DNA of 64,000 nucleotides, taken from the NCBI RefSeq assembly GCF_057098645.1, contig NZ_CM169472.1, one strand, 5' to 3'. Positions 9,001 through 12,000 of this stretch are shown piece by piece. The position numbers are program-made. Numbering within the stretch: the first letter of the stretch is position 1; every line of letters begins with the position of its first letter.

Positions 9001-12000
9001 TCGCCGCACTTAAGGCAGCGCGAGGCTTCCCGTTGTGCCTGGTCGGCGCGAAATGGCAGATAAATTTCATCAAAACCGGTTTTGCGCGCTTCAATCGCCA
9101 GTTTATCCGGCTCGCCACGCGCGGGCGTTGCCTGCATTTGTTCGACTTTACTCATTACCGGCATTTCTTGTGCAGCGGTACTGGCATGCCACGGTTGATG
9201 CTCCTGACGTGCGGTGCGCAAGCGGCGGGATTTCGCCATGCCGGAGAGTGCGGCATCAGTGACCAGTTGCAGCGCGTCTGCCGGGCAATTCTCGACACAG
9301 GCAGGACCGTTTTCGCGCCCTGCACAAAGGTCGCATTTATGCGCCGTGGCTTTTACTTTGCCCACCGCGACGGGTGTCAGGACGATTTGCATCGTACCAA
9401 ACGGACAGGCCACCACGCAGGATTTACAGCCAATACACTTTTGCTGATTGACCTGAATGCTGTCATCAACGTGGCTGATTGCGCCATTAGGGCAGCTACG
9501 GGCGCAGGGCGCATCTTCACAATGGTGACAGGTCACTGCACTACGTTGCTGTTGATGTTTGATAACCGTAATTCGGGGATGAAAATGGTGTTGGCTCAGG
9601 ACATGTTGCTCATCATTGTGAGCCATGACACAGGCGATTTCACAAGCATGACAACCCAGACATTGCTGACTGTTGGCCATAATAAAACGATTCATAACGA
9701 CCTTCTTTTTTGGTTGTAAAAACCTTATTCTTTATATGAGTGTTGTTATTACCCGACTTACAGGGGAATCGGCAATGTTCATGTGCCCAGAATAAGTAAC
9801 TATTTCGCTATAAACTGTGGCAGATCAAATAATCCCATCACTGACTAAATTGTGTTTCAGCGAACTGGAACATTAATGATTTTTTGTGGAGAAGACGCGT
9901 GTGATTGTTAAACGACCCGTCTCGGCCAGTCTGGCCCGGGCCTTTTTTTACATTGTGCTGCTGTCGATTCTTTCCACGGGTATCGCTCTGCTAACTCTGG
10001 CGAGCAGTTTGCGCGACGCTGAGGCTATCAATATTGCCGGATCGCTACGTATGCAGAGTTACCGCCTGGGCTACGACTTGCAAAGTGGCAGTCCACAACT
10101 CAATGCACATCGCCAGTTGTTTCAGCAGGCACTGCATTCACCGGTATTAACCAATCTCAACGTCTGGTATGTGCCAGAAGCAGTAAAAACTCGCTATGCG
10201 CATCTGAATGCCAACTGGCTGGAGATGAATAATCGGCTCAGCAAGGGCGATTTGCCGTGGTATCAGGCCAATATTAATAATTATGTTAATCAGATAGACC
10301 TGTTCGTGCTGGCTTTACAGCACTACGCTGAACGCAAAATGCTGCTGGTGGTGGCGATTTCCTTGGCTGGCGGCATCGGTATTTTCACGCTGGTCTTTTT
10401 TACTTTGCGCCGTATACGCCATCAGGTGGTTGCCCCGCTGAATCAGCTGGTTACCGCCAGTCAGCGTATTGAACACGGGCAGTTCGACTCGCCGCCGCTG
10501 GATACCAACCTGCCGAATGAGCTTGGCCTGCTTGCAAAAACCTTTAACCAGATGTCGAGCGAGCTGCATAAATTGTACCTTTCGCTGGAGGCGTCAGTAG
10601 AAGAAAAGACCCGCGATCTCCACGAGGCCAAGCGTCGTCTGGAGGTGTTGTATCAATGTTCGCAGGCGCTGAACACCAGCCAGATTGATGTGCATTGTTT
10701 CCGCCATATTTTGCAGATTGTTCGCGACAATGAAGCGGCTGAGTATCTGGAGTTAAATGTCGGTGAAAACTGGCGGATTAGCGAAGGGCAACCAAACCCG
10801 GAATTGCCGATGCAGATTTTACCGGTGACAATGCAAGAGACGGTTTACGGTGAACTGCACTGGCAAAATAGTCACGTTTCATCATCAGAACCGCTGCTTA
10901 ACAGCGTTTCATCGATGCTGGGACGCGGTTTGTACTTTAATCAGGCGCAGAAGCATTTTCAGCAGTTATTGTTGATGGAAGAACGTGCGACCATCGCCCG
11001 CGAATTGCACGACTCGCTGGCTCAGGTGCTTTCTTACTTACGTATCCAGTTGACGTTACTTAAGCGTTCGATACCGGAAGATAACGCCACCGCACAAAGT
11101 ATCATGGCCGATTTTTCCCAGGCGTTGAATGATGCTTATCGGCAGTTACGCGAGCTGTTGACTACTTTCCGCCTGACGCTGCAGCAGGCGGATCTCCCCT
11201 CCGCGTTGAGGGAAATGCTGGATACGTTACAAAATCAAACCAGCGCCAAACTGACCCTCGACTGCCGTCTGCCAACCCTGGCGCTGGATGCGCAAATGCA
11301 GGTGCATTTGTTGCAAATTATTCGCGAAGCGGTGCTGAATGCGATGAAGCATGCCAACGCCAGCGAAATCGCCGTCAGTTGCGTCACCGCGCCGGACGGC
11401 AATCACACGGTTTATATCCGTGATAACGGGATTGGTATCGGTGAACCGAAAGAACCCGAAGGTCATTATGGTCTGAATATCATGCGCGAACGCGCGGAAC
11501 GGCTAGGTGGGACGCTGACTTTTTCACAACCTTCCGGCGGCGGCACGTTAGTGAGTATTAGCTTTCGCTCTGCGGAGGGTGAGGAAAGTCAGTTGATGTA
11601 ATGCCTCCTACTGACCAAAGAATACTTGCACTTAAGGTTCAGTATAAAAGGGCATGATAATTTACATTAACTCCTTTTTTTCTCCACGATTGGCTCGTAC
11701 CTTGCCGCTACAGTGAAGCAAGTCAAGCCTACAACGATACGCAGAAACACGAGGTCCTCTTTTAATGGCGAATTTCTTTATTGATCGCCCCATTTTTGCC
11801 TGGGTGCTGGCAATCCTGTTGTGTCTGACAGGGACCCTGGCGATTTTTTCATTGCCCGTTGAACAATACCCCGATCTCGCGCCACCGAATGTGCGAGTGA
11901 CCGCTAACTATCCCGGCGCATCGGCCCAGACGCTGGAAAACACCGTGACCCAGGTTATCGAGCAAAATATGACCGGCCTCGATAATCTCATGTATATGTC

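Follow-up and report, generated by a model that had tools for sequence, protein, structure and literature searches.

The BaeR box of the Escherichia coli acrD promoter as the probable promoter-proximal part of a larger conserved operator

The narQ-acrD region

The window analyzed in this work, a stretch of 64,000 nucleotides (nt) from an Escherichia coli genome (RefSeq assembly GCF_057098645.1, contig NZ_CM169472.1; positions are those of the whole stretch), carries the gene acrD, which encodes a resistance-nodulation-division (RND) efflux permease, and upstream of it a sequence that resembles the binding site of the regulator BaeR. AcrD exports aminoglycosides, some beta-lactams and metals. 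The coding sequence of acrD, the gene that would be regulated by this site, extends from 11765 to 14878 on the + strand (1037 amino acids), as given by the open reading frame and by the RefSeq annotation of identical DNA, and the gene upstream of it on the same strand is narQ (9901-11601, from the annotation of identical DNA). The spacer between both genes includes the 18-mer TTTTTCTCCACGATTGGC (11677-11694, + strand), referred to here as the BaeR box, and closer to acrD a Shine-Dalgarno sequence, GAGG (11751-11754, + strand), which is part of a GAGGT block located 10 nt 5' of the ATG and conserved in the cross-genus alignment described below.

A first-pass annotation, made from the sequence of this DNA, had placed a BaeR box about 70 bp upstream of the acrD start. 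The exact sequence is found there, and 70 nt separate its end from the ATG at 11765. The downstream gene had also been named correctly, given that several E. coli O145:H28 genomes, in which the flanks are annotated as narQ and acrD, share a 601-bp segment around the box at 100% identity. The same segment was found in 5424 of 5426 complete E. coli genomes, and strain K-12 MG1655 is identical to the window over the entire acrD promoter, so that the K-12 literature is directly applicable to it. No intrinsic terminator between narQ and acrD was detected in a scan of positions 11500-11850; the segment 11602-11650 is unconserved and has no detected terminator, and read-through from narQ into acrD may occur.

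Match to the BaeR consensus

The BaeR consensus of Nishino 2005, as quoted by two later papers, is TTTTTCTCCATDATTGGC; an alternative published description of the BaeR box is TCTNCANAA. The acrD box agrees with TTTTTCTCCATDATTGGC at 17 of 18 positions, the single mismatch being T to C at position 11. The same score had been claimed in the first-pass annotation, and the BaeR sequence used there is exactly the consensus quoted in the two papers. When TTTTTCTCCATDATTGGC was searched in the 64-kb window allowing up to three mismatches, the acrD box was the sole match, with 0.15 matches expected from shuffled sequences.

The K-12 promoters of spy and mdtA were fetched, and their boxes, TTTTTCTCCATAATTGGC and TTTTTCTCCCTTATTGGC respectively, differ from the acrD 18-mer at no more than three positions (15-16 of 18 identical). 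Taking the majority base at each position of these two boxes and that of acrD in K-12 yields the published consensus exactly, including the D at position 12; judged from these sequences, the acrD box looks like one of the three sites from which the consensus was built. A consensus free of acrD, TTTTTCTCCMTWATTGGC, was consequently derived from spy and mdtA only; the acrD box matches it at 16 of 18 positions, and allowing up to two mismatches the segment 11677-11694 was its only match in the 64 kb, where 0.02 matches are expected. The relaxed core TTCTCCAYNWTTG, at one mismatch or fewer, gave five matches in the window against 1.15 expected, and the four other than acrD lie inside coding regions.

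Conservation of the acrD promoter

Orthologous promoters were collected by a protein-based scan with one genome per species, that is, independently of the box; it retrieved 80 AcrD orthologue loci (82-99% identity) from about 35 enterobacterial genera plus Erwinia, 79 of them with upstream sequence. The best + strand match to the box was located 68-74 nt before the ATG in 73 of the 79 loci. The core TTTCTCCACG(A/T)TTG is nearly invariant across the 79 loci, with variation in the two T's at the start of the 18-mer and in its terminal GC. The C that counts as a mismatch at position 11 is itself conserved, as CCACG is present in nearly all genera.

In a MAFFT alignment of these promoters, a 39-bp block (11654-11692) reaches near-maximal information, and the 18-mer is only a part of it. 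The block shows 1.6-1.9 bits per position versus 0.3-0.8 in its flanks: within it, an upstream element (11654-11666) has 1.65 bits per position, and the distal and proximal units of the repeat described below have 1.63 and 1.86, respectively. Further conserved blocks correspond to 11707-11715, which includes a putative -10 hexamer (1.71 bits per position), and to the ribosome-binding site. Much lower values were obtained for the spacer between the box and the -10 hexamer (0.76), the far upstream region (0.34) and the terminal GC of the 18-mer (0.41), and the 3' end of narQ together with the first ~50 nt of the spacer shows almost no cross-genus conservation. On the evidence of these alignments, the conservation of the box in orthologous promoters is above the neutral background. 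Within E. coli, 5335 of 5386 records carry a 65-bp core without any difference, and only 3560 of 5425 keep the entire 163-bp spacer at 99% identity or above.

Organization of the operator and the predicted promoter

The best-conserved part of the site is an 11-bp unit, TCTCCACGATT (11681-11691, + strand), hereafter the proximal unit, in which TCTCCACG(A/T)TT is nearly invariant in the 79 loci. It is preceded by a distal 11-bp unit, ACTCCTTTTTT (11670-11680, + strand), that in most other genera begins with TCTCC. Using the proximal T[CT]T[CT]CA[CT]G as an anchor, 77 of the 80 sequences could be compared; the distal TCT(C/T)C is located exactly 11 bp 5' of the proximal TCTCC in 73 of the 77 (TCTCC in 58 and TCTTC in 15), and ACTCC occupies this place in two, the window and one Escherichia sp. 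A11670, the first base of this ACTCC, is fixed in the complete genomes of E. coli, and TCTCC is the form of 58 of the 77 anchored sequences; by this comparison A11670 is a substitution of the E. coli lineage that would weaken a conserved operator position. Of the distal unit, the 18-mer takes in the A/T tail and leaves out the CTCC; it then covers the proximal unit in full and three flanking bases.

A hexamer TAnA(G/T)T occurs exactly 28 bp 3' of the proximal TCTCC in all 77 anchored sequences (TACAGT in 42, TAGAGT in 15, TAAAGT in 12 and TACATT in 8). In the window it reads TACAGT (11709-11714, + strand), and its fixed offset makes it the predicted -10 element; from its position only, transcription would start at A11721 (+ strand), 7 nt past the hexamer, leaving a 5' untranslated region (5'UTR) of 44 nt. 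Measured from the anchor, the ATG is 76 to 212 nt away (153 in Erwinia, 105 in Phytobacter and 212 in Kosakonia oryziphila) and the spacing between the box and the hexamer is constant, which indicates that the site takes its position from the promoter and not from the start codon. In Kosakonia oryziphila ~125 bp, and in Phytobacter diazotrophicus ~20 bp, are inserted between the -10 and the acrD ATG, resulting in a longer 5'UTR with the operator-promoter unit intact.

No sigma-70 -35/-10 consensus pair was found in 11500-11850, which fits an activator-dependent promoter. With the start at 11721, the two repeat units would cover approximately -51 to -30. A literature search returned no experimentally mapped start for acrD, and the supplement of a Cappable-seq study has no entry near the K-12 coordinates. 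The sequence GATAAT (11656-11661) was considered as a constitutive -10 element and rejected: it has no -35, and it is incompatible with activation because the BaeR site would fall downstream of +1.

The upstream element

The element ATGATAATTTACA (11654-11666, + strand) is as conserved as the box and matches no full known motif. It includes TTTAC (11661-11665), that is, GTAAA on the minus strand, a half-site of the CpxR type, which is at a fixed position in 74 of the 80 sequences; in 15 of the 80, a + strand GTAAA is present 17 bp further upstream. At the homologous position in Salmonella, a CpxR-like site, GTAAA-agcgc-ATGAT, has been predicted in a published study, and it corresponds to this second (+ strand) pentamer. 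The CpxR box GTAAA-N5-GTAAA, at two mismatches or fewer, has no match in the spacer 11602-11764, where only the single half-site TTTAC is found, and at three mismatches or fewer it has 473 matches in the window, which is too permissive to inform. In the work of Hirakawa et al. 2005, BaeR and CpxR reportedly recognized separate sequences of the acrD promoter. If this separate binding of CpxR holds, ATGATAATTTACA is the obvious candidate for it; the alternative candidate is a third, degenerate BaeR unit.

Other features of the window

Several features were observed away from the acrD promoter. An open reading frame of 398 amino acids (39062-40258) coincides in position with the transposase of ISEc20, an IS110-like insertion sequence that interrupts focB in a nearly identical O145 genome, and focB is seemingly truncated in the window (open reading frame of 266 amino acids at 38153-38953). 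At 9696-9885 the window does not carry the IS3-family insertion that is present between aegA and narQ in strain RM9872, and hyfF (31088-32668), frameshifted in RM9872, is intact, so that the window derives from a strain that is related to RM9872 and distinct from it. Between ypfN and ypfH, the segment 17151-17228 matches the Rfam model of naRNA4, a nucleoid-associated RNA derived from repetitive extragenic palindromic (REP) sequences, with 85.7 bits. Matches in a plasmid collection (n=6) were mostly chromosome-sized records (1.4-4.9 Mb) filed as plasmids, and one was a 19.7-kb record of Klebsiella oxytoca.

Discussion

The BaeR site of acrD is already known: it has been published, it is a member of the founding set of BaeR boxes, and it has been present in the literature since 2005. 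Reviews and primary papers include acrD, along with spy and mdtABCD-baeSR, in the core BaeR regulon, and a secondary source states that acrD is regulated directly by BaeR. According to K-12 RNA sequencing (RNA-seq), acrD changes by log2 -2.91 (p 2e-39; about 7.5-fold) in a baeR deletion in lysogeny broth with 5% ethanol, and by log2 -0.20 without stress. For Erwinia amylovora it was reported that BaeR shifted an acrD promoter fragment carrying ...TTCTTCACGATT..., and that acrD was induced about 4-fold (Pletzer & Weingart 2014, PMC3915751). The first-pass annotation had proposed that acrD is induced by BaeSR through the 18-mer. The induction is upheld by the place of acrD in the accepted core regulon, by its fall in the baeR deletion under stress and by the conservation of the site, with one conflicting chromatin immunoprecipitation-exonuclease (ChIP-exo) study that is considered below. 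As a qualification, the functional unit is larger than the 18-mer: another half-site precedes the proximal one by 11 bp, an additional conserved element is present, and the terminal GC is not conserved. The uncertainty that remains concerns the mechanism (start site, stoichiometry and the role of the upstream element) and not the identity of the site.

From these results we consider it very probable that the 18-mer constitutes the promoter-proximal portion of the operator to which BaeR binds in the acrD promoter. Most likely, phosphorylated BaeR, a winged-helix regulator of the OmpR/PhoB family, would bind as a head-to-tail dimer to ACTCCTTTTTT and TCTCCACGATT, with the repeat units straddling the -35 position in a promoter where the predicted -10, TACAGT, is conserved and no -35 hexamer was found. 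The bound BaeR would recruit or stabilize the sigma-70 RNA polymerase, as PhoB does at the pho boxes, and acrD would be transcribed only when the sensor kinase BaeS reports envelope stress (indole, Cu/Zn, tungstate, ethanol).

Several points weigh against this proposal. The score of 17 out of 18 is partly circular, because the majority rule over spy, mdtA and acrD reproduces TTTTTCTCCATDATTGGC; the bare motif TCTCC-N6-TCTCC has four matches in the window against 1.9 expected, which is not significant alone; E. coli has an imperfect distal half-site (ACTCC); and the -10/-35 geometry derives from a predicted start. Direct binding of E. coli BaeR to the exact acrD sequence is available as a secondary citation only, and the gel shift of the Erwinia amylovora acrD fragment was a smear. 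In addition, a ChIP-exo assay of tagged BaeR in K-12 under ethanol stress gave peaks at spy and mdtA but no peak at acrD, a gene that its authors class as indirectly regulated; the missing peak counts against a strong occupancy by BaeR under this stress. The dependence on BaeR decreases from spy (log2 -5.8) to mdtA (-4.0) and acrD (-2.9). Because the acrD operator is conserved and correctly positioned, we read the missing peak as probably due to insufficient sensitivity at acrD, the weakest site of the three, and the indirect call as a probable false negative; as a speculation, the imperfect distal half-site ACTCC could aggravate a weak occupancy by BaeR in E. coli.

A strictly indirect action of BaeR on acrD, with the conserved block being the operator of another BaeR-dependent factor, for instance CpxR or other regulator, would account for the missing peak as its authors concluded, and would agree with the change of acrD in a cpxR deletion (log2 -1.87 by K-12 RNA-seq), with the invariant TTTAC inside the block and with the CpxR-like prediction made in Salmonella. 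It is unlikely, however, given that the acrD box is nearly identical to those of spy and mdtA, where two ChIP-exo peaks flank the spy box and one (2153931-2153967) covers the mdtA box (2153945-2153962), and that the spacer has no CpxR box at two mismatches or fewer. The TCTCCA half-site and its 11-bp spacing match the footprint of DzrR and the crystal sites of AdeR, described in the next section, and not GTAAA-N5-GTAAA; moreover, the induction of acrD mediated by CpxR is reported to need BaeSR, BaeR being the primary regulator.

We regard it as very unlikely that the T-rich block acts chiefly in the core promoter, for example as an UP-like element or an unusual -35, and that its resemblance to a BaeR site is secondary. 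This would suit an A/T-rich block at about -67 to -30 of the predicted start in a region where a canonical -35 was not found, but the G/C positions of CTCC and CACG are invariant across genera, fitting base-specific recognition by a protein, the expression of acrD is BaeR-dependent and stress-specific instead of constitutive, and the same box is found at two other BaeR-dependent promoters. A chance resemblance without function would draw on the 14 of 100 shuffles that contained at least one match at three mismatches or fewer, and on a consensus partly derived from the acrD site itself; nevertheless, the actual number of mismatches is one and not three, the non-circular test expects 0.02 matches, and a fixed spacing kept across about 35 genera effectively refutes this idea, whose probability we take to be negligible.

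More tentatively, the 18-mer may under-describe the acrD promoter, which would be a composite operator in which ATGATAATTTACA docks a second regulator (CpxR through the single GTAAA, or other factor) or a third BaeR protomer, and the change from T to A at 11670 weakens the binding of BaeR enough to make acrD dependent on a helper. We see this as a possibility that is rather doubtful; if true, it would explain a missing ChIP-exo peak despite the BaeR-dependent expression of the gene. To the published site, the present analysis adds a cross-genus footprint, from which the operator would consist of two 11-bp direct repeats and a conserved upstream element, and so be more than the 18-mer; it also adds that the final two bases of the published box are unconstrained at acrD, and a conserved geometry that probably argues against the indirect control concluded from ChIP-exo. 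The induction of AcrD by BaeSR contributes to adaptive resistance.

Comparison with known systems

The boxes of spy and mdtABCD-baeSR are, like that of acrD, located 5' of BaeR-dependent envelope-stress genes. In the three promoters a second element of the CTCC type is found upstream in helical phase, at 10 bp in mdtA, 11 bp in acrD and 22 bp in spy. Downstream, spy shows TACACT at +28, the same offset as in acrD, and mdtA shows TATCAT at +26. The promoters differ at one tetranucleotide, which is CACG in acrD, where it is conserved across genera, CATA in spy and CCTT in mdtA. Besides TACACT, the K-12 spy promoter carries, ~50 bp further downstream, a better sigma-70-like sequence, TTGACG-N16-TAATCT (positions 1245-1250 and 1189-1216 of locus L002, respectively, minus strand), and this sequence arrangement suggests that K-12 spy has two promoters.

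The acrD promoter of Erwinia amylovora carries the homologous unit, T(C)TTCACGATT as compared with TCTCCACGATT, at the same spacing to the -10 as in E. coli, and it differs in its longer 5'UTR, which leaves the site about 140-166 nt before the ATG. In PMC3915751 the Erwinia 18-mer, TTCTTCACGATTACTGGC, was aligned to the consensus in a register other than the homologous one. In the orthologous alignment, which includes Erwinia mallotivora (positions 1248-1258 of locus L082), TCT(T/C)CACGATT lines up with TCTCCACGATT of E. coli.

The pho box, recognized by PhoB, a regulator of the same family as BaeR, has TGTCA as the core of its half-site and differs in this from the TCTCC of acrD. The likeness lies in the architecture, given that two 11-bp direct repeats replace the -35 in the pho box (PDB 3T72), and acrD also has a tandem 11-bp repeat, in a promoter where no -35 was found and in a geometry that follows from its predicted start. 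The DNA-binding domain of BaeR (structure 4B09), a winged helix of the usual OmpR/PhoB type, matches those of PhoB, AdeR, CpxR and OmpR; among solved domains, the closest are those of PhoB (E 5e-14, with the PhoB/sigma-4/DNA complex 3T72 included), AdeR (2e-12) and CpxR. A special kinship between BaeR and AdeR was considered and rejected, since the DNA-binding domain of BaeR is at least as close to PhoB.

Two other regulators of the OmpR family that control RND pumps, different from BaeR and from other organisms, recognize direct repeats with a CTCCA(C/T) core and an 11-bp period. For DzrR (Dickeya/Burkholderia desAB), the DNase I footprint TTCTCCATCATATCTCCATATT consists of two TCTCCAT units 11 bp apart. 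For AdeR, the site co-crystallized from the adeR-adeABC spacer of Acinetobacter baumannii is AAGTGTGGAG-N-AAGTGTGGAG, whose complementary strand reads CTCCACACTT-N-CTCCACACTT; between this AdeR unit, CTCCACACTT, and the proximal unit of acrD, CTCCACGATT, 8 of 10 positions agree. Since AdeR is not nearer to BaeR than PhoB is, the likeness to DzrR and AdeR is an analogy of architecture only, and as such it lends support to the binding of a BaeR dimer to two half-sites in the acrD promoter.

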